Origin: an uncultured archaeon
Lineage (GTDB): Archaea > Iainarchaeota > Iainarchaeia > Iainarchaeales > CSSED10-239
Length of the DNA stretch: 32,000 nt
Assembly: GCA_964586355.1 (NCBI GenBank)
Contig: CAZPGO010000030.1
Span: 72,441 to 104,440, forward strand
Direction: 5' to 3'
The notes below the pieces were generated by a model. The model was not told the origin of the DNA and made no database searches. It saw nothing but the letters and a program-made list of their open reading frames with translations. A program made the position numbers and the translations under genes. Below, piece after piece: positions 10,448 to 32,000 of this stretch. Each line of letters starts with the position of its first letter. Positions within the stretch are counted from its first letter, which is position 1.

Positions 10448-11656
10448 ATGAGTGATAATATTTTTTATGAATTATTAAATCAAGATTCTGTTTTTACTGA
10501 CAAATCAAAAATATCACCACATTATGCTCCAGAGAAACTACCTTTTCGTGATCAACAAATAAAAAACCTCTCTTTATGGTTAGCACCAGCACTAAAAAAA
10601 GCAAAACCTCATAATATCTTTATTTATGGTAAAGTGGGTACAGGAAAAACAACTGTTGTAAAACATGTAATAGATCAATTAGAGCATTTTTCTAAAGATC
10701 AACAGCTTCCATTAAAAACAATTTATATAAATTGTAGAAATTATCAAACAAAATATGCGATTTTATTCTATTGTGTTCAATTGTTTTATCCAGATCTAAA
10801 TTTTATAGGTTATTCTAGATCTTTTATTTATGATAAATTTTTAACTTATGTTAAAGAAAATAAACTTAATTTTGTAGTTATCTTAGATGAGATTGACAAA
10901 GTAAAAGAAATTGATGATCTAACTTATACCCTAATAAGATCAAATGATGAAATAGATCTAGGCTCTGTTTCTATGATTGGCATCTCAAACAACATTTTTT
11001 TTAAAAATAATTTAGATTCTAGAACAAAAAGCACACTTTGTGAGCAAGAAGCGGTTTATCCCCCCTATAATGCTGAAGAACTAAAAAGTATTCTTGAGCA
11101 AAGAGTTGAACTAGCTTTTAAAGAAAACTCAGTTACTGATTCTGCAATAAATTCTGCAGCTGCAATTGCTGCAAAAGAGTCAGGGGATGCTAGGCGTGCT
11201 GTTATGTTATTATTAAGAGCAGGAGAGCTTGCTGATCTAAATAAATCCAAACAAGTTACAGATAAGGAAGTTTACAGAGCAAAAGAAAAAGTTGAGTTAG
11301 AAGTTATGAAAAGCATGGTTTTAACTCTACCATTACAATTACAACTAGTTTTATTTGCAATTGCTCAAAGCTCATTAAAACCTAAGGGAATACTCAATCT
11401 AACTGGTCAAACACTAGATTCAAATATAATCTATTCAGGAGAAATATTTGATAAATATTCAGAGATTTGTGAAAGTTATTGTGAAAAGGCAGTTTCTATA
11501 AGATGGTTTAGAGAATATATTACTGAGTTAGAGACCTATGGTTTTATTTCTACTACTATTTCTGGTAAAGGAGTAAAAGGAAATACTACTTTAATAAAAC
11601 TAGGTATTGATGCACAAAGTATAGTAGATCTTTTAGAAAATGAATTAAAGGTTTAA
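10448..11656 (+). CDS. orc1: Orc1/Cdc6 replication initiator, paralog 1
   Basis: 402 aa. YAPEKLPFRDQQI initiator N-terminus, Walker A YGKVGTGKTT, Walker B VVILDEID, GDARRAV sensor-2 motif, C-terminal winged helix. Confidence 0.9.
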   Translation: MSDNIFYELLNQDSVFTDKSKISPHYAPEKLPFRDQQIKNLSLWLAPALKKAKPHNIFIYGKVGTGKTTVVKHVIDQLEHFSKDQQLPLKTIYINCRNYQTKYAILFYCVQLFYPDLNFIGYSRSFIYDKFLTYVKENKLNFVVILDEIDKVKEIDDLTYTLIRSNDEIDLGSVSMIGISNNIFFKNNLDSRTKSTLCEQEAVYPPYNAEELKSILEQRVELAFKENSVTDSAINSAAAIAAKESGDARRAVMLLLRAGELADLNKSKQVTDKEVYRAKEKVELEVMKSMVLTLPLQLQLVLFAIAQSSLKPKGILNLTGQTLDSNIIYSGEIFDKYSEICESYCEKAVSIRWFREYITELETYGFISTTISGKGVKGNTTLIKLGIDAQSIVDLLENELKV

Positions 11657-18534: not shown

Positions 18535-19413
18535 ATGAGCACAAAAAAAAAAGAAGAAACAAATAAATTTGAAGAACAATTATACACATTATTTTTACCA
18601 TTAACAGAGAACATAAAAATAAAAGAATTAGAAACAAAGTTAATGCAATTAGATTACCCAGACGATCTTTCTGTTTATTTATCAAAACATCTTTTTTTTG
18701 CAGTTTTTGTGCCTTTAATATTATTATTAATCGGCTCTTTTTTTTCTTTTGCTACTGGCAATGTAGGTTGGATAAGTAATTTATTAATTATTTGTATATT
18801 TTCTTTCTTTGCGGTTTTAGTTTATGCTTTATTAAAACCTTATTTAGATGTTTCTGCAAAAGCAACAAATATTAAAAATAGTTTATCTTTAGCAATTTTA
18901 AGTATGTCTAGTATTGCAGAATCAGGAGCTCCTCCAGAATCCATGTTTCACACAGCAGCCACAAAATCAGAGTCTCCTGAGCTTTCAAAGGAGCTTCAAA
19001 AGATAACTGGTTATTTAGATCATTTTGGTTTATCTTTGCCTGAAGCTATTGATCAATATTGTAAGATCACGCCATCAGTAGATCTAAAAAAATTTTTATT
19101 AGAACTAAAATCTAATCTTGCCTCTGGTGGTTCCTTATCAGAGTTTATGAAAAAAAAAGCAGAGCATGCTCAATTTACTTATAAATTAGTTTTAGATAAT
19201 ATGAACAAGAGAGCAGAAACTTTTGGAGATATTTATTCAGCTATTGTTATTGCTGGTCCGTTATTTTTATTTTCATCAATTATGCTTTTAGGTATGATTG
19301 GTGGAGGAGGGTTTGGAGGTATGAGCATAAACACATTAATGATCTTAGGTGTGTTTGGTGTTGTGCCTATGATTAATATAATTTTTATAATTGTTCTACA
19401 AATAATATCATAA
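18535..19413 (+). CDS. Type IV pilus/archaellum platform protein, half-size (single T2SSF domain, FlaJ/TadB/TadC-like)
   Basis: 292 aa. Cytoplasmic helical bundle region (LSLAILSMSSIAESGAPPESMF...LPEAIDQY...LASGGSLSEFM) flanked by TM helices, as in T2SSF repeats. Confidence 0.65.
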   Translation: MSTKKKEETNKFEEQLYTLFLPLTENIKIKELETKLMQLDYPDDLSVYLSKHLFFAVFVPLILLLIGSFFSFATGNVGWISNLLIICIFSFFAVLVYALLKPYLDVSAKATNIKNSLSLAILSMSSIAESGAPPESMFHTAATKSESPELSKELQKITGYLDHFGLSLPEAIDQYCKITPSVDLKKFLLELKSNLASGGSLSEFMKKKAEHAQFTYKLVLDNMNKRAETFGDIYSAIVIAGPLFLFSSIMLLGMIGGGGFGGMSINTLMILGVFGVVPMINIIFIIVLQIIS

Positions 19414-19423
19414 AGGAAAAAAA

Positions 19424-20245
19424 ATGAATAAAAAACAAAAATATTTTTTGGATTTTGCTGTTAAAGGCGGTATTGCTAGTGTTGTTTTAGCGGTACTTTT
19501 AATAAACACAAAGATATTAATCTTTGCTATTTTTCCTTTTTTAGGGGCTATTGGTTTTGCCGCCATAACCTATACTAAAAAATTAAAATCTCTAGAAACA
19601 AATTTATTTATTTTCTTAGATGATCTAAGAGATTTATTACAAGGTGGTATGAATATAGTTACTGCTATGGAGATTATAACAGAACATGATTATGGAGCAT
19701 TAAACGAATATCTAAAAAGAATTGCTGCACAGATAAAAATCGGTGTGCCTTTTGAAGTTTCTTTAATTAATGTTTTTGATGATATTGAAAGTCCATTATT
19801 TGGTAAAGTTGCACAAGTTATTTCTGAGAGTACTAAGTTTGGTGGAAATTTAATAAAAATATTTTCATCAGTCTCTAATTATGTAAAAACAATAAACGAT
19901 ATGTCAGAGGAAAGAAAATCAAAAACATTCTCTACTGTGTTTTCTTCTTATTTTATGTTTTTTATTTTTATTGCAATTATTTTAACAATACAAATAGTGT
20001 TTTTACCAATGCTTGCTTCAAATGATCTAAGCTCAGCAACAGGGGGAGATAGCTCTGAGTCTTTAGCAGATATTAATTTTAATTCTTATTTTTTATTTTT
20101 ATTAGTTATTCAAGCAGGTTTTGCTGGTCCAATTATTGGAAAGATTTCAGAGAATAACGCTATTGCTGGCATAAAACACTCCATAATTTTACTAGCAGTC
20201 TCTGTTCCTTTGTATGTTGTAATCTCTATATTTTTTGTTGCATAG
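19424..20245 (+). CDS. Second half-size T2SSF-domain platform protein (FlaJ/TadC-like)
   Basis: 273 aa. FLDDLRDLLQGGMNIVTAMEII...IKIGVPFEVSL...ESTKFGGNL helical region plus N- and C-terminal TM helices. 10-nt gap from the previous gene. Confidence 0.65.
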   Translation: MNKKQKYFLDFAVKGGIASVVLAVLLINTKILIFAIFPFLGAIGFAAITYTKKLKSLETNLFIFLDDLRDLLQGGMNIVTAMEIITEHDYGALNEYLKRIAAQIKIGVPFEVSLINVFDDIESPLFGKVAQVISESTKFGGNLIKIFSSVSNYVKTINDMSEERKSKTFSTVFSSYFMFFIFIAIILTIQIVFLPMLASNDLSSATGGDSSESLADINFNSYFLFLLVIQAGFAGPIIGKISENNAIAGIKHSIILLAVSVPLYVVISIFFVA

Positions 20246-20361: not shown

Positions 20362-20835
20362 ATGAAATTTAAAAAAAAAGCTGTTTCCCCATTAATTGCT
20401 ACAATCTTATTAATCGTTGTTGCAGTTATTTTAGTGACAATTGTTTTAACATGGGGAAAGAATTTTGCAAGTGATAGTTTAGCTTCAGCTGGCGACATAG
20501 GTGTTGATAGTTGTTCTGGCTCTTCACTAGTTTTATCTAATTGTCAAATAATTGGAACAGATGCAATCTTTACTGTAAGAAATAACAGTTCAAACGATTA
20601 CACATTTCCAAGCACAGATGTTTTAAAAGTATTTATTACCGATGATTCTGGAAATTCATCTTCTGCAGAAGCAGATCTAAACACATCTGCAAGTGCAACT
20701 TGGGATGTTGAATTAGCTCCTGGTCAAAATCAAGGTGCAAAGGTTGATGTTGATGGATTTACAGGAAACATTACAATAAATGTAAGATCTATGACTTGTC
20801 CAAATGACGCTATGGCAGAAATTGTTTGCAGATAG
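20362..20835 (+). CDS. Archaeal type IV pilin (Pilin_N/DUF361-type class III signal peptide), paralog 1, probably monocistronic
   Basis: MKFKKKA|VSPLIATILLIVVAVILVTIVLTWGK matches the archaeal Pilin_N consensus (AVSPVIATILL...). Own TATA, Shine-Dalgarno and downstream oligo-T tract. Four conserved Cys. Confidence 0.8.
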   Translation: MKFKKKAVSPLIATILLIVVAVILVTIVLTWGKNFASDSLASAGDIGVDSCSGSSLVLSNCQIIGTDAIFTVRNNSSNDYTFPSTDVLKVFITDDSGNSSSAEADLNTSASATWDVELAPGQNQGAKVDVDGFTGNITINVRSMTCPNDAMAEIVCR

Positions 20836-20941: not shown

Positions 20942-21412
20942 ATGTATCTTAAAAATAAACAAAAAGCACTGTCTCCATTAATAGCTACAATTTTATTAGT
21001 TGCAGTATCTTTATCATTAGCAGGAATATTATATTCTTGGTCTTCACAAAATGCTAAAGAAACAACAACCAGCCTTACTGAGACTACTCAAAAATGGACT
21101 GATTGTGGTGCTGTAAACTTATATATTGAAACCGGTTGTAGATATGATCCAGAAACAGGAATTAGTTTAATATTAATGGATCAATCAACAGTTGCTATTG
21201 ATGAAAACTTAACTATGACTATTATTGATAATGATAATAACATAGTAAGTAAAAACTTTGCACCGAATTTTAAAGGAAAAGCAATGGCAATAAATGATAG
21301 TATTTTTGAAGATTCAGAAGATCTAAAGGGTTTAGTAAAGCCCTTACAAAGAATAAGAATTTTTGTTAATAGTTGCCCTGATAAAGCAGCAACTACAATA
21401 TCATGTAATTAA
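20942..21412 (+). CDS. Archaeal type IV pilin (Pilin_N), paralog 2 (divergent)
   Basis: MYLKNKQKA|LSPLIATILLVAVSLSLAGILYSW. Same four-Cys pattern (C-x10-C ... C-x9-C-N). Confidence 0.75.
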   Translation: MYLKNKQKALSPLIATILLVAVSLSLAGILYSWSSQNAKETTTSLTETTQKWTDCGAVNLYIETGCRYDPETGISLILMDQSTVAIDENLTMTIIDNDNNIVSKNFAPNFKGKAMAINDSIFEDSEDLKGLVKPLQRIRIFVNSCPDKAATTISCN

Positions 21413-21428
21413 TTTGGAGGAAATAAGT

Positions 21429-21938
21429 ATGATTAATTTAAATAAAAAAGCAGTTTCACCACTAATTGCAACCATCTTGTTAATAGTTGTTGCAGTTATT
21501 TTAGTAACTATAGTTTTGACTTGGGGTAAAGACTTTGCTTCAAGTAGTTTATCAACTGTAGATGATGCGATTTCTGATAATTGTGTTGGTGTTTCATTAT
21601 CTATAAGTAATTGTACAATTGATGCAGATAATAATCAAGTAACTTTCTTTTTAAGAAATATTAGTACAGATTCTTATGCATTTCCAGACACAGAAAAATT
21701 CAAAGTTTATTTAACTGATAGTTCTGGTAATACATATGCTTCAGAATTAGATCTAAATGGAACAGATGGTGTTACAGCAATAACTGGATTAAATAATGGA
21801 GAGATGAAAGCAGGAAAAGCAGCGACAGATGTTGTAACTCCTAATTTAGTTACTACAACAGGAACAATAAAAGTAACAGTAAGACCAGAAACTGTTTGTC
21901 CAACAGATGCTACTGCTACAGCAACATGTACTAGATAA
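21429..21938 (+). CDS. Archaeal type IV pilin (Pilin_N), paralog 3
   Basis: The track ORF starts at 21363 inside pilin 2. ATG 21429 is preceded by GGAGG (21415-21419) and gives MINLNKKA|VSPLIATILLIVVAVILVTIVLTWGK, identical over 27 aa to paralog 1. Confidence 0.8.
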   Translation: MINLNKKAVSPLIATILLIVVAVILVTIVLTWGKDFASSSLSTVDDAISDNCVGVSLSISNCTIDADNNQVTFFLRNISTDSYAFPDTEKFKVYLTDSSGNTYASELDLNGTDGVTAITGLNNGEMKAGKAATDVVTPNLVTTTGTIKVTVRPETVCPTDATATATCTR

Positions 21939-21950
21939 ATGTGATAATTT

Positions 21951-22403
21951 ATGAAGTTTAAGAAAAATGCAGTATCCCCGATAATAGCAACAATATTAAT
22001 AATTGTTGTTTCATTAGTGTTAGTAGCTATACTTGTTTCTTGGGGACAAAATTTTGTTCAAAGAAATACAGCTCAAGCAGATAATTCTATTGACACTAGT
22101 TGTATGGGTGCTGATCTTTCTATTTCTTTTTGTGAATATAGTAGTTCTAATGATAAATTAAGTTTTATTCTTACAAATAGTGGAGAAATTGTTTTTCCAG
22201 AAGATAGTAACTTTTTTGTGACTTTGCTGGATGATAATAGAGACCTTAACACATCAAACACTAACATTTTAGATGGTAATAGTTTAGGTATTGGAGAAGC
22301 AGCAAAAGTAGAACTAGAAGGGTATGATGCAGTTCCACCTATAAGAATTACTATAAGAAACACAAAATGTAGTGGTTTTTTTAAAGAAGTTCTTTGTAGA
22401 TAA
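21951..22403 (+). CDS. Archaeal type IV pilin (Pilin_N), paralog 4
   Basis: MKFKKNA|VSPIIATILIIVVSLVLVAILVSWGQ. Four-Cys pattern retained (C-x9-C ... C-x8-C-R). Confidence 0.8.
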   Translation: MKFKKNAVSPIIATILIIVVSLVLVAILVSWGQNFVQRNTAQADNSIDTSCMGADLSISFCEYSSSNDKLSFILTNSGEIVFPEDSNFFVTLLDDNRDLNTSNTNILDGNSLGIGEAAKVELEGYDAVPPIRITIRNTKCSGFFKEVLCR

Positions 22404-25762: not shown

Positions 25763-25926
25763 TTTATTTTTGTTGCTATATAATATAAATTGCTACATCC
25801 TGTTTATTGTATAATAAACTTGTTAAAAAAACAAATTTACAAAACATAGAGATCTCAAGCTTTTTAAATATAATATCTATATATTTTATTAGTTTAAACT
25901 ATTATTAAAAAAATAAAAAGATAAAT

Positions 25927-27009
25927 ATGAACAAAAACATTTTCCAAAAAGATCAAATAGAATATGCAACAATCTTTAAAGATGAAAGTATATTTTATCC
26001 AAGCTATTTACCAGAGGAAATACCTGCAAGAGATAAACAAATAAAAGAAATCACTTTTTGTCTAGATCCAATTATTAAAAATAAAAAAACACAAAACATG
26101 TTGTTATTTGGAACCCCGGGAACAGGAAAAACCTTACTTTCAAAATATGTAGTAAAACAGTTAACAGAATACACACAAAAAGCAAAATATGTTTACATAA
26201 ATGCAATTGAAGATAACACCAGATATGCTGTTTTACTAAAAATATTATCGCTGTTTTCAGATGTTTTACCAAGAAGAGGTTTAGGCACAGATGAAATATT
26301 TGGAAGAATTAAAGAAAATCTAAAAAAACAAAATTCAATACCAATAATAATTATTGATGAAGTAGATCAATTACCGTCTAGTGAGGCTTCTTATTTGTTA
26401 TATGAGCTTTCTAGAACTGTTGTAGAAAATAAATATTTCACATTATTGTTAATTACAAACAATAAAGATTTTTTAGTACATTTAGATCCAAGAGTGCAAA
26501 GTAGTTTGTTTATAACTAGAATAGAGTTTAATAAATATTCGCCAGTGGAGCTAAAAACCATTTTAAGAGAAAGAATAGAGTATGGTTTGATAAAAAACGC
26601 AATTTCTGAAGACCTTATGGGTTATATAGCAGGTTATGCTTCTAAATCTGGAGGAGATGCTAGAATTGCTATAGATCTTTTATTTAAAGCTGCAAAGAAT
26701 GCAGATAAAAAAGGTTCTTTAAAGATAACTAAACAGATACTTTTAGATTCTGCAAATGTTGTTGACTCTATTAAACTTTCAGAAAAGAAAAAAACTCTTT
26801 CTAAGCTTGAGTTAAGTGTTTTAAGTTCTATAATAGATGGTATGCAATCAGGAGATCTATATTCTTTATTTCCAAAAAATCAAGAAAGAACAATAAGAAG
26901 ATATATTACTAGTTTTGAAAAACAAAAATTAATTGAGACAAAAGAGATAAACACAAAAAATGGAAGAACTAGACAAATATTTCTAAAGTTTGATAAGAGT
27001 TTATTATAA
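25927..27009 (+). CDS. orc1: Orc1/Cdc6 replication initiator, paralog 2
   Basis: 360 aa. YLPEEIPARDKQI, Walker A FGTPGTGKTL, Walker B IIIIDEVD, GGDARIAIDLL, C-terminal winged helix. Confidence 0.85.
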   Translation: MNKNIFQKDQIEYATIFKDESIFYPSYLPEEIPARDKQIKEITFCLDPIIKNKKTQNMLLFGTPGTGKTLLSKYVVKQLTEYTQKAKYVYINAIEDNTRYAVLLKILSLFSDVLPRRGLGTDEIFGRIKENLKKQNSIPIIIIDEVDQLPSSEASYLLYELSRTVVENKYFTLLLITNNKDFLVHLDPRVQSSLFITRIEFNKYSPVELKTILRERIEYGLIKNAISEDLMGYIAGYASKSGGDARIAIDLLFKAAKNADKKGSLKITKQILLDSANVVDSIKLSEKKKTLSKLELSVLSSIIDGMQSGDLYSLFPKNQERTIRRYITSFEKQKLIETKEINTKNGRTRQIFLKFDKSLL

Positions 27010-27036
27010 ACTTTTTCAAAAAAAGTTTAATCAAAA
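27006..27036. repeat. 31-bp exact repeat, copy A (contains an A/T palindrome)
   Basis: ATAAACTTTTTCAAAAAAAGTTTAATCAAAA is identical to 30372-30402. It overlaps the orc1-2 stop codon. AAAAACGAGAT follows at 27049-27059 and recurs at 30460-30470. Confidence 0.8.
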
Positions 27037-27075
27037 ACGAAAGAAAGTAAAAACGAGATAAAAAGAAATAGAAAT

Positions 27076-27825
27076 TTAGTCTGTATCTACTCTTGGAGCT
27101 AAATAATATCTTATAGCTGCAGATCCAATAGTGTAACTTAACTCTATTGGCATATCGTCTTTTAGTTTAATATTTATTGTGCCTTTTGAGTTTTTAATCA
27201 TATTTTGTAAATAATCTAAAGGAAACATAGCTTTTGCTTTTTGTCCAGAGATTGCAACTTCTCCACCTTCAATTTCTTGTTTAAATTTACCTTTGCTACT
27301 TTGTGTCTCTAAAATAAATTTTTCATCTGATACTTTAAATGTCAAATGAGAACTAAATAATGCAGCATCTTTAATACCGCCAAGTAATTGGTCACTTGTT
27401 AGTTGAACAGTAACTTCAAAGGGTATGTTTGGCAGAGGGTGTTGTTGATCTGAAACATCTATTAAAGGTATGGTAAAAGATCTTTTTGATTTTCCTAACA
27501 ATTCAATTAAGATTGTTGGTTTCTCTTCTTTAATTTCAATAGAGAGTTTGTCATCTGCATTAGAATGAGATAAAATTTGTAAAAGGTTATTAAGATTTAT
27601 TCCAAAAGAGATTTTATTTGCACTTTCTTCTCCAATATCTGCAATATATTCTTCAAAAGCAGATTTTGGCATTACAAAGTCCACTAAGCTTATTTGGCTA
27701 GGGTCTGTTGCTCTTAAAAAGAATTTTTCTTTATCTATGGTAAATAAACCTTCATTTATTAATACTCCAATAGCATCAATACATTTGTAAAATTCTTTTG
27801 CATCTTTTATTACAAGTTTTATCAT
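27076..27825 (-). CDS. pcn: DNA polymerase sliding clamp PCNA
   Basis: 249 aa. MIKLVIKDAKEFYKCIDAIGVLINEGLFTIDKEKFFLRATDPSQISLVDF is a typical archaeal PCNA N-terminus. C-terminal IRYYLAPRVD. Confidence 0.9.
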   Translation of the reverse strand: MIKLVIKDAKEFYKCIDAIGVLINEGLFTIDKEKFFLRATDPSQISLVDFVMPKSAFEEYIADIGEESANKISFGINLNNLLQILSHSNADDKLSIEIKEEKPTILIELLGKSKRSFTIPLIDVSDQQHPLPNIPFEVTVQLTSDQLLGGIKDAALFSSHLTFKVSDEKFILETQSSKGKFKQEIEGGEVAISGQKAKAMFPLDYLQNMIKNSKGTINIKLKDDMPIELSYTIGSAAIRYYLAPRVDTD

Positions 27826-27895
27826 TTTTCAATCATCCCCTCAAAAATAATATATATTTTGGTTAAAAACATTTTTTAAATAGGTCTTTTTTAGG

Positions 27896-28621
27896 TTATC
27901 TAGCAAACATTAGTTTTATATATCCAATATATGGAATTTTTCCAATTTTCTTTCCAATGATGTTCTCTGCGGGTGTTGGGTATAGATGTAAGCATCCTTT
28001 ATTAATATAGATCTCCTCATCTGTGCTAATGTTTCTATCTATTCCACAATCTTGATCTAGGTATCTATTTGTTTTACTATTATCTCCTTTTGTAAAGATA
28101 TATTCTCCATCATTAGCTTTAATATAAACAATTGCTCTGTGAATTATATCTTTTGGAACAGTGTTTGATTTATAAACTACTGTGCTGTTGTTGTTTGTTA
28201 TTGCATCATTAACAAAAATCTTTTCATTATTTATTTCTAAATACTCTATTTCTTGTAAACCGTATTCATTTGTTTTATAATTTAGAGTAAATATCTCAAA
28301 AAGATCTTTTTTAGAAATGTTATAATCAACAGTAATTGTTGGAACTATTAGATTTTCTGGAGCAGTTAAGATAACTACATCTCCTTTATTTAAGGTTGGA
28401 GTCATTGATGTGCTAACAACAATTGCTAGTGGCATACTTACTCTTAGAATAACACCTATTAGGTTGTATATTAAGTAAGCCATTAAAAAAGAAAATAATA
28501 AATAAAATATCCAATAAACAGTTTTAATTAAAGTATTTTTTGGTTTTCCAATTATTTTTTCAAGAAAGAGATCAAGATAAGTAAATGGATCTAACCAATA
28601 AAATATTTTTTTTAGTTTCAT
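27896..28621 (-). CDS. Signal peptidase I (archaeal/ER Sec11-type, S26B)
   Basis: 241 aa. N-terminal TM helices then VVSTSMTPTLNKGDVVIL (catalytic Ser box), HRAIVY (His box) and TKGDNS. Confidence 0.75.
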   Translation of the reverse strand: MKLKKIFYWLDPFTYLDLFLEKIIGKPKNTLIKTVYWIFYLLFSFLMAYLIYNLIGVILRVSMPLAIVVSTSMTPTLNKGDVVILTAPENLIVPTITVDYNISKKDLFEIFTLNYKTNEYGLQEIEYLEINNEKIFVNDAITNNNSTVVYKSNTVPKDIIHRAIVYIKANDGEYIFTKGDNSKTNRYLDQDCGIDRNISTDEEIYINKGCLHLYPTPAENIIGKKIGKIPYIGYIKLMFAR

Positions 28622-28622
28622 T

Positions 28623-28907
28623 TTAATTTATTTTCTCTGCACTTTTTTCTATAGATTTTAGTATATTTAAAAATTTTTCTTCAGTTTCATTTATTGCATC
28701 TAAAAAAACATCTTTTGCATTTTTTTCTTTTGTTCTAAGATAAATAGTAAATTCTTTTGCAAGTTCATCTGCATTTTTTTTAGAAACAAATTCTACGTCT
28801 TTTTTAGAAGATAGTTCATTTACTATCATATCGTAAAAAGAAGAATCTTCATTTTTTACTACAAATTCAAGTTCATTTTTTGTTTTCTGTATAAATTCTA
28901 TTTCCAT
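28623..28907 (-). CDS. rpoL: RNA polymerase subunit L/Rpo11-like protein
   Basis: The track ORF begins at 28952 inside csl4. ATG 28907 gives MEIEFIQKTKNELEFVVKNEDSSFYDMIVNELSSKKDVEFVSKK...FTIYLRTKEKNAKDVFLDAINE, resembling RpoL (MEI.i.e...neiefei.gEDHTlgN.L..eL....V.fa.Y...HP). The EDHT box is degenerate. The csl4-rpoL pairing fits conserved archaeal synteny. Confidence 0.5.
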   Translation of the reverse strand: MEIEFIQKTKNELEFVVKNEDSSFYDMIVNELSSKKDVEFVSKKNADELAKEFTIYLRTKEKNAKDVFLDAINETEEKFLNILKSIEKSAEKIN

Positions 28908-28908
28908 T

Positions 28909-29358
28909 TTATTCCACCAATTTTGCAAATTTTTTTGTTTGTATTGTGCCACAGTTTAGGCATTTTATTTTTCCATCATTCTCAATTGCTTTTTTATTTA
29001 ATGTTTGTTTACATTTTTTACAATATCCTTTGATAACCCCAAGTTCTGGGTAGTTGGTAACTAATTTATATTCATAAGGGGAGACATCACTAACCTTAGC
29101 AAGAATAATATCCCCTTTAGAAAAACAATCTTGTGTGCTTTCTATGTATTTAGAATCAATATTTTTTACAAATATAACTCCCATATCAGCAGGAGACAAA
29201 ACCTTTTTAGAATCCATACACCCACTAACACCAACAACTACAAGATTATCTTTTAAAACTAATATTTCTCCGTAAATTGTGTCTCCAATACTAATTGGTT
29301 CCTTTTTTTTAATATTTTTAAAAATATCATTAAATTCTTTTACTTTTTCGTTTTGCAT
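28909..29358 (-). CDS. csl4: Exosome RNA-binding subunit Csl4 (S1 domain plus zinc ribbon), shortened
   Basis: 149 aa. GDTIYGEI, GVIFVKNIDSKYIES..FSKGDIILAKV (S1), and GVIKGYCKKCKQTL...IKCLNCG (CxxC...CxxC ribbon). Confidence 0.65.
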   Translation of the reverse strand: MQNEKVKEFNDIFKNIKKKEPISIGDTIYGEILVLKDNLVVVGVSGCMDSKKVLSPADMGVIFVKNIDSKYIESTQDCFSKGDIILAKVSDVSPYEYKLVTNYPELGVIKGYCKKCKQTLNKKAIENDGKIKCLNCGTIQTKKFAKLVE

Positions 29359-29476
29359 TTGTTAATCACATGTTTTTTTATATAAAAATAAGTATTATAT
29401 AATATATATTATATAAAAAAAGGTTTATATAGATATTCTACTAATAAATCTTTAACAAAACACAAAATAGATTCAT

Positions 29477-30343
29477 ATGCTTGACTTTATATTTTCTGCA
29501 AAAAAGATGTTAGACAGACCTTATTTGATTATTTTTGAGGCCATTTATTTAGTTATAATCTCTGTATTTATTTCTTTGTTGTTATTACCACCACAATATG
29601 TAAGTATTGGTATTTTAACTTTTATAACTGTTGGAGCTATTCCTTTGTTTAATAAGATCTTTTCATATAGCTCTTATTTATTTAATTATAACAAATCTTT
29701 TTTTACTAGGCATAAAAAGCTATTAATAATATTAGTTTATTTTTTTATTGGTTTGTTTATTGCATATTCTGCATTTTATTTTTTTAGTACAGAACCTGTA
29801 AGAGAGGCTATTTTTTTAATTCAAAATGAAGAGATGGAAGGAATTTCTTATTTAAGAAGTTCTCTTACAGGAGAAATTTCTGCAATTGATTCTAGTACTC
29901 AAGCTGGTTTTGGGAAAGTATTTTCTTTAATTTTAAAAAATAACATAGGTGTTGCTTTTAGAGCATTATTACTTTCTTTATTTTATGGTGCTGGTGCTTT
30001 GTTTTTAATAGCTTGGAATGCTTCAATATTAGCAACAGTTATTTCTGCAGAGATCTTTTCTTCAATTGTTATTAGTGGTTATGGGCTAGGGTTATTAAGT
30101 CCATTTATTGGTCTTTTTAATGCTTTGTTTAATTTAATTGGGTATATTCCTCACGGTCTGCCAGAGATTCTAACCTATTTTTTAATAAGTTTTGCAGGAG
30201 CTATGATTGCTAGAGATCTTAACAAAGGGATTTTTTCAACAGAGTACAAGTTTAGAGTTTTGTTAGATTTTTTGTTAATGGTTGGTTTAGCTTTGCTTTT
30301 GTTAGTGTTAGGGGCATTAATAGAGGCCTCTTATTTCCTATAA
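29477..30343 (+). CDS. SpoIIM-like (DUF95) integral membrane protein
   Basis: 288 aa, polytopic. IPHGLPEILTYFLISFAGAMIARD matches the SpoIIM/DUF95 signature (PHG..E..a....g.aG). Confidence 0.6.
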   Translation: MLDFIFSAKKMLDRPYLIIFEAIYLVIISVFISLLLLPPQYVSIGILTFITVGAIPLFNKIFSYSSYLFNYNKSFFTRHKKLLIILVYFFIGLFIAYSAFYFFSTEPVREAIFLIQNEEMEGISYLRSSLTGEISAIDSSTQAGFGKVFSLILKNNIGVAFRALLLSLFYGAGALFLIAWNASILATVISAEIFSSIVISGYGLGLLSPFIGLFNALFNLIGYIPHGLPEILTYFLISFAGAMIARDLNKGIFSTEYKFRVLLDFLLMVGLALLLLVLGALIEASYFL

Positions 30344-30371
30344 CTTTTTTTTAAACAAAGAGATTAATCAA

Positions 30372-30402
30372 ATAAACTTTTTCAAAAAAAGTTTAATCAA
30401 AA
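30372..30402. repeat. 31-bp exact repeat, copy B
   Basis: Identical to 27006-27036. Lies between the SpoIIM-like gene and the pilin-FGE fusion gene. Confidence 0.8.
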
Positions 30403-30559
30403 TAGCCTTTCTTGAAAAGAAAGCCTAGGGAAAGAATTTTTTTCAACAAAAGGTTCAACAAAAACGAGATTAGAAAAAAATTATTACTAAAACCTAGTGA
30501 TTATCTATTTTTCTTGTTTTTCGCAACCTTTTTATATGTTTTCTTCTTTTTATTTAAAT

Positions 30560-31891
30560 ATGTTTTACAAGCGTTCTGTCTCTCCTTTAATCGCCACTAT
30601 TTTAATAATAGTTGTAAGTGTGATATTAGTCACTGTTGTTTTAACTTGGGGCAAAAGTTTTGTAAGCGATCATTTATCCAGTTCTTCTTCTTTAGTCACT
30701 TCTAGTAATACCGATCGTTATCAATATATTCGTTTAACCGATTCCAAGAACGGTCGTTTTTTTTTCACTTATTCTCCACCCCAGACCATAACTGATCATA
30801 ATTTTACCATTACTAGTTTTACTTACAATGGCGGTCATGAGATCCCCTTACCAGAAGAAAAAATAATAACCACTCCAGGAATATTTACTTTAGATCTAGG
30901 TATACTGGATAATGATCCTTTTTTTATAAACTTAATTTTTGCAGACAATTATTATTTATCCTTCAAAGACCTCACCACCACCAGTTCCGCCCCAAATGAA
31001 AGTGATTGTCCATCAGGTTTTATTCCAGTTCCAGGTAATCATTTATATGGTACTGTTTACTCCAAAGGTGGTTTTTGTGTAGCCCAATACGAAATGAAGA
31101 TGGATTATAATAGTGATGGTATAGGAGATCTAGTTGTCAATTATCCTGATTGTAATACCGATAGTTTAGTCTATAACACTTGGAGTTACTTAAATTGTTC
31201 AAACGGCACAATCGTTTCCACAAAAGAAGGTTCACCCATAGCACGAATCACTCAAGAACAAGCAATACCCGCTTGTGAGTCTATAGGCGGTCATTTGATC
31301 ACCAATGACGAATGGATGACTTTAGCAAGAAATATTGAAATGGTCAAAGACAACTGGAGTGGTGGAGAAATCGGCGTAGGTTATTTACCACGAGGTAACA
31401 CTAATCTTGGTGGTGCTGGTACCTCTTTAAATCCAGAAGGTAGTGGTAAAGCCAAGCGAACCTTAAAATTAACCAATGGTCAAATCATTTGGGATCTTCC
31501 CGGTAATGTTTGGGAATTGACTAATGATGAAATTGATTTATCTACAAATAGACCTACCTCTTTTAATAATTCAGGAGAAATAATAACTACAAATGGTTTT
31601 TATAATTATTTTTTAAAAGATCCGGACTCTGCTGCTATAGGGTATATTAAATATGATTCTCTTGGTAGTACAACTTTAAAATATAAAGATTTATTTTTAT
31701 TAACTAATGGAAATTATAATGTTGATAATGGTATTGGCAGAATATATTTGTCAACATCTACTGGGCGAGTGTTTCTGCGCGGTGGCGATTGGAACACTGG
31801 ACCTCACGCAGGTCTTTTAGCCTTGTACCTGCGCAGCGGGGCAAGTAGCCGGAGCTATAACATCGGGTTTCGGTGCGCAGTAGTTCCTTAA
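30560..31891 (+). CDS. Fusion protein: archaeal Pilin_N class III signal/anchor plus beta-rich linker plus FGE-sulfatase (SUMF1)-like C-terminal domain
   Basis: The track ORF starts at 30497; ATG 30560 gives MFYKRS|VSPLIATILIIVVSVILVTVVLTWGKSFVSDHLSS, the same module as pilins 1 and 3. C-terminal CPSGFIPVPG, FCVAQYEM, ITNDEWMTLAR, GNVWELTND, RGGDW and IGFRCAV are FGE-sulfatase family blocks. Confidence 0.8.
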   Translation: MFYKRSVSPLIATILIIVVSVILVTVVLTWGKSFVSDHLSSSSSLVTSSNTDRYQYIRLTDSKNGRFFFTYSPPQTITDHNFTITSFTYNGGHEIPLPEEKIITTPGIFTLDLGILDNDPFFINLIFADNYYLSFKDLTTTSSAPNESDCPSGFIPVPGNHLYGTVYSKGGFCVAQYEMKMDYNSDGIGDLVVNYPDCNTDSLVYNTWSYLNCSNGTIVSTKEGSPIARITQEQAIPACESIGGHLITNDEWMTLARNIEMVKDNWSGGEIGVGYLPRGNTNLGGAGTSLNPEGSGKAKRTLKLTNGQIIWDLPGNVWELTNDEIDLSTNRPTSFNNSGEIITTNGFYNYFLKDPDSAAIGYIKYDSLGSTTLKYKDLFLLTNGNYNVDNGIGRIYLSTSTGRVFLRGGDWNTGPHAGLLALYLRSGASSRSYNIGFRCAVVP

Positions 31892-31969
31892 TTTAAATAA
31901 TATTTAATCTCCAAATAATATATGTTATTCTGCTAGGAGATTATCTGCTATCTGTCTATCTTTGGTAAA

Positions 31970-32000
31970 GACCTTGCCTAAGGCAAGGTCAAATTTTTTT
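31970..32000 (+). terminator. Intrinsic (bacterial-style) hairpin terminator
   Basis: GACCTTGCC-TAA-GGCAAGGTC is a perfect 9-bp GC-rich stem. It is followed by AAA then T7 at the window edge, 79 nt after the fusion-gene stop. Confidence 0.55.

Follow-up and report, generated by a model that had tools for sequence, protein, structure and literature searches.

A diversity-generating retroelement target protein with an archaeal type IV pilin module, a candidate hypervariable pilus adhesin of an uncultured Iainarchaeales archaeon

Described systems and their likeness to the archaeal locus

Bordetella phage BPP-1 is the established model of diversity-generating retroelements (DGRs). Here we analyzed a DGR target gene on a stretch of 32,000 nucleotides from an uncultured archaeon of the Iainarchaeota (Iainarchaeia; Iainarchaeales; CSSED10-239; assembly GCA_964586355.1, contig CAZPGO010000030.1, positions 72,441 to 104,440 of the forward strand), the whole of which is referred to as the window. 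The locus has the target, variable region (VR), template repeat (TR), Avd and reverse transcriptase (RT) anatomy of a DGR, its variation is adenine-specific, and the target protein combines a C-type-lectin (CLec) fold with a conserved pilin-type N-terminus. The protein is probably a DGR-diversified modular minor archaeal type IV pilin that acts as a hypervariable pilus adhesin, although we infer its incorporation into the pilus. Copying by RT-Avd and replacement of the VR are established biology of DGRs (PMC8144416, PMC6182149), and the CLec-fold variable proteins described include TaqVP (5vf4), Mtd of phage BPP-1 (1yu0-1yu4), TvpA (2y3c) and AvpA of Nanoarchaeota (PMC5006420). Like these proteins, the target shows a CLec fold similar to that of formylglycine-generating enzymes (FGEs) and a C-terminal VR ending in G(F/L)RC, and like their systems its locus shows an AAY-rich TR, adenine-specific VR/TR differences, Avd and an RT. 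However, TaqVP, Mtd, TvpA and AvpA have no type IV pilin module: Mtd sits at the tip of a phage tail fibre, TvpA is, like LdtA, a lipoprotein, and for TaqVP and AvpA no anchor is defined. Furthermore, the archaeal cassette differs from those of the named systems in its two tandem four-helix-bundle genes. DGRs and CLec-fold variable proteins are well known in DPANN archaea and candidate phyla radiation (CPR) bacteria (PMC4372165, PMC5006420, PMC8144416); in the largest DGR survey, CPR and archaeal targets are usually without a recognisable membrane anchor or conserved domain, and their location was left open (PMC8144416).

A pilin module and a DGR-diversified CLec head are also joined in the Bacteroides type V pilus tip adhesins BfrT, BthT and BunT, whose display on a surface filament was shown by experiment (bioRxiv 10.1101/2024.11.15.621889), while display of the target is predicted here from sequence. 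Bacteroidota type V pili are, unlike the target, lipoprotein-derived strand-exchange polymers, and share neither fold nor export nor assembly with the type IV pili of archaea. The S. sanguinis modular type IV pilins PilB and PilC resemble the target in a small pilin module followed by a bulky C-terminal functional module, and the target has both parts of the modular pilins as defined by Raynaud et al. (2021), a pilin module and a C-terminal module unspecific to pilus biology. In bacteria, a pilin-SUMF domain architecture (IPR012902-IPR005532) was catalogued, uncommented, for eight proteins (PMC8179133 Dataset S1), and the CPR relatives found here belong to it; that survey covered the bacterial N-methylation motif (IPR012902) only, with neither archaea nor a link to DGRs, whereas the target N-terminus is of the archaeal Pilin_N type. 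In addition, a 'G-type pilin' domain is among the rare VR-bearing domains of one survey (PMC11661182), and PMC6642488 credits 'putative pilin structures' among CPR/DPANN DUF1566 DGR targets to Paul et al. 2017. The literature searched, where Paul et al. 2017 was available second-hand only, contained no description of a DGR that targets an archaeal type IV pilin. A previous sequence-only reading of the window, made without database searches, had considered the architecture to be uncharacterised; this is tempered by the bacterial fusions and the PMC6642488 remark, and holds for the archaeal version, for which no paper was found. Both DGRs in DPANN and type V pilus tips diversified by DGRs had been described before, and the new element is the archaeal type IV pilin as display scaffold.

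As in archaeal type IV pilins (8fk7, PF07790, UpsA), a basic leader, a small residue at position -1, a helix of about 30 residues and an immunoglobulin (Ig)-like sandwich are present in the target; unlike them, it shows an extra head of 295 residues and a sub-threshold Pfam score. The head shares its fold and Pfam family with SUMF1 and the inactive paralogue SUMF2/pFGE (1y1e, 1y4j). Unlike SUMF1, it has no catalytic Cys pair, the corresponding segment is hypervariable and the N-terminal architecture differs.

The DGR cassette and adenine-specific variation of the target gene

The features of the locus are listed in Table 1. Contig L001 overlaps window positions 25811-32000 at 99.8% identity without gaps, and its target protein (P0001) is 98% identical to that of the window. 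Past the window end, the order on L001 is avd2, avd, a non-coding gap with the TR, and the RT gene; the RT and avd reading frames are intact, and avd2 and avd would map to window positions of approximately 32038-32772. DGR-type RTs are recognised by an [LIV]GxxxSQ motif and YxDD, with which the motifs of the L001 RT agree. The VR (FLRGGDWNTGPHAGLLALYLRSGASSRSYNIGFRCA) differs from the TR (FLRGGNWNNGTNTGLLALNLNNGTSNQNYNIGFRCA) at 14 positions, 13 of them TR adenines (32 adenines in 109 nt; hypergeometric p=1.7e-7). The TR holds ten AAY codons; adenine substitution reaches no stop codon and makes about 1.9e16 proteins accessible. Within the window, an adenine-blind scan with the TR returned the VR alone, and the repeat search found no partner for it.

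Table 1. Features of the target locus and of the pilin cluster (window positions unless L001 is named; nt, nucleotides; aa, amino acids)
Feature	Position	Strand	Evidence or remark
Two T2SSF/FlaJ-PilC-type membrane platform genes	18535..20245	+	PF00482 E=4e-12, 1e-17
Four small pilin genes	20362-20835, 20942-21412, 21429-21938, 21951-22403	+	shared K(K/N)A[VL]SP[LI]IATIL N-termini
Target gene (DGR variable protein with archaeal type IV pilin module)	30560..31891	+	443 aa, open reading frame (ORF) call
Class III signal leader MFYKRS	30560..30577	+	predicted prepilin-peptidase cut after Ser6
Hydrophobic pilin alpha-1 helix, residues 7-42	30578..30685	+	AlphaFold2 helix 9-42, pilin identity, profile match
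Ig/fibronectin type III (FN3)-like beta-sandwich, residues ~55-140	30722..30979	+	AlphaFold2 strands with pLDDT >90, Foldseek
CLec/FGE-sulfatase-fold domain, residues ~149-443	31004..31888	+	PF03781, Foldseek
VR, codons 405-440	31771..31879	+	109-nt repeat of TR
Invariant VR 3' end CTATAACATCGGGTTTCGGTGCGCA, candidate boundary of the initiation-of-mutagenic-homing (IMH) type	31855..31879	+	identical in VR and TR
Hairpin GACCTTGCCT-A-AGGCAAGGTC, then T7	31970..31990	+	10-bp perfect stem; folded region z=-3.6
avd2, four-helix-bundle protein	L001:6228-6605		TIGR02436 25.8 bits
Avd	L001:6621-6962		NF033474 DivGenRetAVD 85.3 bits (cut-off 80), PF22296 73 bits
TR, 109 nt	L001:7048-7156		repeat of L001:5961-6069 = window 31771-31879
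RT	L001:7359-8414		RVT_1 E=2.7e-25, IGNLTSQ and YVDD

The VR-TR homology breaks off abruptly behind the G/C-rich VR 3' end. The GC content is 58.7% in the VR and 46.8% in the TR, compared with 34-35% in the target gene outside the VR, 19-21% in avd and RT, and 26.7% in the window, so that the VR is the most GC-rich spot of the window because adenines were mutated away. The hairpin at 31970-31990 could be either a DGR target-recognition cruciform or a terminator, the latter because it lies 91 nt 3' of the VR and a T7 tract follows it. Its stem (GACCTTGCC/GGCAAGGTC) is also found 3' of a 48%-identical target (L007:3513-3534), and other relatives show different hairpins. Upstream, the intergenic motif TTTTTCAAAAAAAGTTTAATCAAAA occurs three times (27012-27053, 30378-30419 and 30439-30480), two of the copies just 5' of the target gene, and could be a promoter or terminator element.

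The cluster of proteins with at least 90% identity to the window protein contains six members, in which 13 of 21 variable columns fall within the last 42 of 451 (p=7e-10). Three VR alleles, differing at TR-adenine sites, were found in it: one is common to the window, L001, P0121, P0123 and P0125, while P0122 and P0124 carry other VRs. All 13 differences between the P0122 allele (L083, from another sample) and the TR are at adenines (p=1.5e-8), and 17 of the 18 differences between the L083 VR and the window VR are at TR-adenine sites. These alleles indicate that the DGR is, or recently was, active in the population of the window. Furthermore, in three near-identical copies of Ca. Forterrea multitransposorum, the 10 variable columns are all located in the VR (p=1.5e-11).

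The P0124 VR looks chimeric, with a 5' half equal to the window allele and a 3' half like the L083 allele, suggestive of partial retrohoming or of a recombination event inside this region. Of the 12 positions outside the VR at which the window and L001 differ, 11 are inside the target gene (30912-31631; p=4e-7), and the flanking 5 kb are identical. Nine non-VR differences are non-synonymous (N118T, V204A, S241D, K297E, A298T, L320W, S357P, A358S); the non-VR differences in the target gene show no adenine specificity and are recombined in various combinations among members of the population. Diversifying selection, gene conversion or strain mosaics may account for this polymorphism.

For the survey of cassette conservation, 82 loci were fetched. 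The order target-avd2-avd-TR-RT is kept in the archaeal loci L002/L009, L015, L006, L007, L010 and L011, where VR-TR mismatches at adenines amount to 12 of 14, 20 of 20, 18 of 18, 18 of 18, 20 of 20 and 17 of 22, respectively; L002/L009 and L015 belong to Forterrea (CP045477). In L008 and L013 the RT lies directly 3' of the target, and the screen showed neither avd nor a TR repeat, while no RT was found within the flank of the more diverged paralogues L004, L014, L029, L056 and L075. Two tandem four-helix-bundle genes (avd2 and avd) were observed in the archaeal cassettes L001, L002, L006, L007, L010, L011 and L015, and the CPR cassettes surveyed matched avd only. The complete 840-kb genome of Ca. 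Forterrea multitransposorum (CP045477; L009, L015, L014) contains two DGR-linked copies of the family, one of them beside a DDE transposase, as well as a locus of three tandem genes with pilin N-termini, which includes a diverged copy with no RT nearby.

Pilin module and lectin-fold head of the target protein family

The open frame spans 30497-31891 on the + strand, with the TAA stop at 31889-31891, and the N-terminus read from ATG 30560 is MFYKRSVSPLIATIL... (also given as MFYKRSVSPLIATILIIVVSVILVTVVLTWGKSFVSDHLSS...). An in-frame alternative, ATG 30536, is the start in public gene calls, and P0125 is identical to the window from 30536; the mature protein is the same with either start. The next Met is residue 179, therefore a start downstream of the hydrophobic helix would also cost the following domain. 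A soluble protein made from such a start, the outcome that the sequence-only reading had named as contrary to its own proposal, was ruled out on this ground and because no segment of the family alignment varies less than the helix.

The leader and helix (MFYKRS|VSPLIATILIIVVSVILVTVVLTWGK) consist of a short basic leader, a small residue at -1 and a helix with a mean Kyte-Doolittle hydropathy of 2.6. Over the 36 residues past the predicted cut (KRS|VSPLIATIL...), 28 are identical to the pilin encoded at 20362-20835 and 27 to that at 21429-21938, and the coding DNA shared by these N-termini is detectable as a repeat (family D1). The profile of 68 homologues matches solved archaeal pilins at its N-terminus, namely 8fk7_A (a P. 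calidifontis pilus subunit; E=1.3e-6) and 8rey_M (E=2e-4), and weak NCBIfam matches of the target N-terminus to UpsA and arch_flag_Nterm were obtained. The AlphaFold2 model built on the family alignment (pLDDT 90.3, pTM 0.85) shows a helix at residues 9-42, a sandwich at about 55-140 with strands within residues 57-138, and an alpha/beta domain at about 149-443. In Foldseek searches against the PDB, 8fk7_A was matched with E=1.8e-4 over 146 columns, and FN3 domains were matched by the middle part. The region that the sequence-only reading took for a beta-rich linker of about 150 residues is therefore, from the model, Foldseek and profile matches, the folded globular half of a complete pilin, and residues 1-140 are predicted to form a complete pilin fold. 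The same reading had recognised the class III signal and the helix shared with the first and third pilins, and these identities and the archaeal pilin profile bear it out.

With regard to the head, residues 219-326 match FGE-sulfatase PF03781 with E=1.1e-5 and 25.7 bits, above the gathering cut-off of 23.3. The top Foldseek match in the PDB was the T. aquaticus DGR variable protein TaqVP (5vf4; E=3e-10), followed at lower significance by FGEs (about 1e-4), Mtd (4e-4), SUMF2 and TvpA (7.5e-3). The family profile matches 5vf4 with its C-terminus (E=2.5e-5), and the head used as a single sequence in phmmer found TaqVP as its only PDB match, in an alignment over RGGDW...GFRCA that includes the VR. 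In the BFVD structure search, the best matches were phage SUMF-like and tail-fibre proteins. In these alignments, the VR falls on the face with which Mtd, TvpA and TaqVP bind their ligands. Of the six Cys of the protein (residues 150, 173, 198, 213, 239 and 439), at least five are conserved; together with six N-x-S/T sequons, they fit an extracellular head.

In human FGE, the catalytic Cys pair is placed between the RGGS and GFRC blocks. The target has no Cys between RGG and GFRC (residues 410-438: WNTGPHAGLLALYLRSGASSRSYN), and this Cys-less stretch is the VR; the head is therefore a programmed hypervariable binding site, beyond a mere non-catalytic lectin-like domain. The sequence-only reading had noticed that the pair is missing and preferred binding to catalysis, while keeping an enzyme as an option and overlooking the DGR. 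Its preference agrees with the position of the VR and with the structural ranking of DGR variable proteins above FGEs; the enzyme option finds no support, with the pair absent and the VR in its segment. The FGE/C-type-lectin fold that it proposed was recovered by PF03781 and by AlphaFold2 with Foldseek, and the FGE blocks that it listed fall on columns of the family alignment that vary little or not at all.

A homologue search over 5.8 billion proteins returned 273 relatives, of which approximately 100 are full-length at 35-75% identity and come from 'archaeon', 'Candidatus ainarchaeum', Ca. Iainarchaeum and Ca. Forterrea metagenome-assembled genomes; the relatives in a GTDB scan (Ca. Forterrea, Ca. 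Iainarchaeum and 'ainarchaeum') all have at most 49% identity. Their source names are 'flagellin-like protein' or 'SUMF1/EgtB/PvdO family nonheme iron enzyme', the latter being misleading for the target family and corrected here. In the 68-sequence alignment, the (nearly) invariant columns are CPxGF.PVPGN, FCV..YEM, TN.EW, GNV.E, RGG.W and GFRC; PF03781 was matched by 52 of the 68 members and PF07790 by 17 (E<0.01).

Among the 120 best homologues, 85 have an N-terminus of the archaeal K/R-[AGS]|[ILV]-[SE]-P-L-I-A type. A narrower first motif screen gave 64 matches, of which 63 have K or R at position -2; at position -1, no residue but A, S or G occurs. Two of the 120 show the archaeal class III type QxSxE (P0093: PF04021 22.7 bits, cut-off 23.7), and in several CPR homologues (P0114, P0119) the bacterial N-methylation motif exceeds its Pfam cut-off. 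The genome survey yielded 14 CPR loci that encode GFT[LI][IVL]E... (GFTLxEL...) in frame with a homologous head (L034, L041, L058, L005/L033, L024, L043, L045, L060, L061, L063, L068, L076, L078 and L081); their sources are Gracilibacteria (UGA read through, code 25), Saccharibacteria, Peribacteria and Minisyncoccia. An RT adjoins three of the 14 (L034, L041 and L058), mismatches at TR adenines are 20 of 25 in L034 and 14 of 16 in L041, and the L041 ORF matches N_methyl with 37.1 bits. The joining of one head to three kinds of pilin helix argues for display on a filament or surface as the function under selection.

The four small pilins of the window are candidate filament subunits to carry the target protein; the fourth matches Pilin_N with 22.6 bits. 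The mechanical call of the third pilin ORF opens at TTG 21363 and overlaps the second (21363-21938), and its true start is probably ATG 21429 (MINLNKKAVSPL...). Relatives of the two platform genes are named FlaJ by the Joint Genome Institute (JGI). The window is archaeal and AT-rich, with two Orc1/Cdc6 genes, PCNA, a tRNA-intron endonuclease, CDC48 and RpoL, and tRNA and Rfam scans of it returned nothing. Its genes, its GC content and its relatives all resemble those of DPANN archaea. The Orc1/Cdc6 genes are located at 10448-11656 and 25927-27009, coding strand and GC skew both flip near 7.9-8.1 kb, and the region near 8 kb may be a replication origin region.

Proposed mechanism, alternatives and biological meaning

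In the mechanism that we propose, TR RNA would be reverse-transcribed by RT-Avd with adenine-specific errors and the cDNA would replace the VR, so that retrohoming would re-randomise about 15-17 codons on the ligand-binding face. The class III signal would direct export, the prepilin peptidase would cut after KRS, and the helix, nearly identical to those of the pilins at 20.3-21.9 kb, would insert into the core of a type IV filament. The target would be a minor, probably tip-located subunit because of its size, as proposed for bacterial modular pilins (PMC8179133), with the variable lectin-fold head projecting from the pilus. Its function would be to keep adhesion adapted to ligands that change, whether these are carried by host cells, other cells or particles. 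Filament display, which the sequence-only reading had put forward as an idea, gains support from the pilin N-terminal module and the predicted complete pilin fold.

Several points weigh against this proposal. The place of the target in a filament and at its tip, like its ligand, is a matter of inference, and avd2, avd, the TR and the RT gene were read beyond window base 32000, on a JGI contig (L001) from another sample. Of the two Pfam families that the sequence-only reading had expected, PF03781 was recovered, while Pilin_N (PF07790) reached 17.6 bits (E=0.0074), below its cut-off of 25.2, and NCBIfam TIGR02537 scored 14.2 against a cut-off of 20. The fourteenth VR-TR mismatch is a silent T-to-C, the only difference at the 77 non-adenine positions, and the turnover of the VR is too slow for it to differ in every sample, because the window and L001 share one. 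Finally, the target gene lies 8 kb from the pilin cluster, outside its operon, and neither a prepilin peptidase nor a PilB-type assembly ATPase was found among window ORFs of at least 70 aa. These last two points, together with a mature protein of approximately 47 kDa, three times a normal pilin, favor a surface receptor, diversified by the DGR, in which the class III signal serves only export and anchoring in the membrane or cell surface and which does not polymerise, as in the Sulfolobus bindosome. In Sulfolobus, class III signals on non-pilin sugar-binding proteins are established. We consider this receptor unlikely in the present case: the 78% identity between its helix and that of a co-encoded pilin suggests that the target co-assembles with the pilins, residues 1-140 would make a complete pilin fold, three pilin-type N-termini unrelated to each other carry the head across archaea and bacteria, and bacterial modular pilins of similar size do assemble into pili (PMC8179133).

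The remaining alternatives concern the purpose of the variation and the head itself. Diversification could serve mainly to escape from viruses or antagonists that use the pilus protein as receptor, rather than to search for ligands, a possibility raised for cellular DGR targets by Roux et al. 2021 (PMC8144416) and in keeping with the non-VR polymorphism that is also concentrated in the target gene. This view differs from ours in the selective pressure and leaves the molecular mechanism as proposed; it seems improbable, since the predicted position of the VR is on a face used for ligand binding by Mtd, TvpA and TaqVP and the DGR variable proteins solved and studied are binders. That the target is a static lectin-like pilin, with a VR left over from a now inactive DGR, would suit the single allele shared by the window, L001, P0121, P0123 and P0125, but is very improbable in view of the other alleles of the same cluster, which differ at TR-adenine sites and include one that is fully adenine-specific against the TR, the intact RT and avd frames and the ten AAY codons kept in the TR. 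Least credible of all is a catalytic enzyme of the SUMF1/FGE/EgtB type, after the NCBI names of several homologues and the PF03781 match above cut-off. It was rejected: the segment of the FGE catalytic pair has no Cys and is the hypervariable VR, the structural search puts DGR variable proteins above FGEs, and a pilin N-terminus is present. With about 15 residues of its binding face rewritten by the adjacent RT system, the target is probably a hypervariable adhesin and no enzyme.

Ultrasmall symbionts may generally recognise their hosts or partners by means of lectin-fold heads rewritten by DGRs and mounted on pilins, a device that would have been put together separately in the two domains, with archaeal Pilin_N or QxSxE helices in DPANN and bacterial N-methyl helices in CPR; we advance this generalisation tentatively, as somewhat less probable than its opposite. 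DPANN and CPR are rich in DGRs, whose assumed role is the diversification of attachment proteins, and the type IV pilin module offers a mechanism for displaying such proteins. The prediction is that organisms unculturable alone recognise their partners through hypervariable adhesins borne on pili. If the device is general, it would answer the question of Roux et al. 2021 on whether CPR and archaeal DGR targets are anchored at the surface at all, and it would provide a concrete molecule for how DPANN and CPR find and switch hosts.

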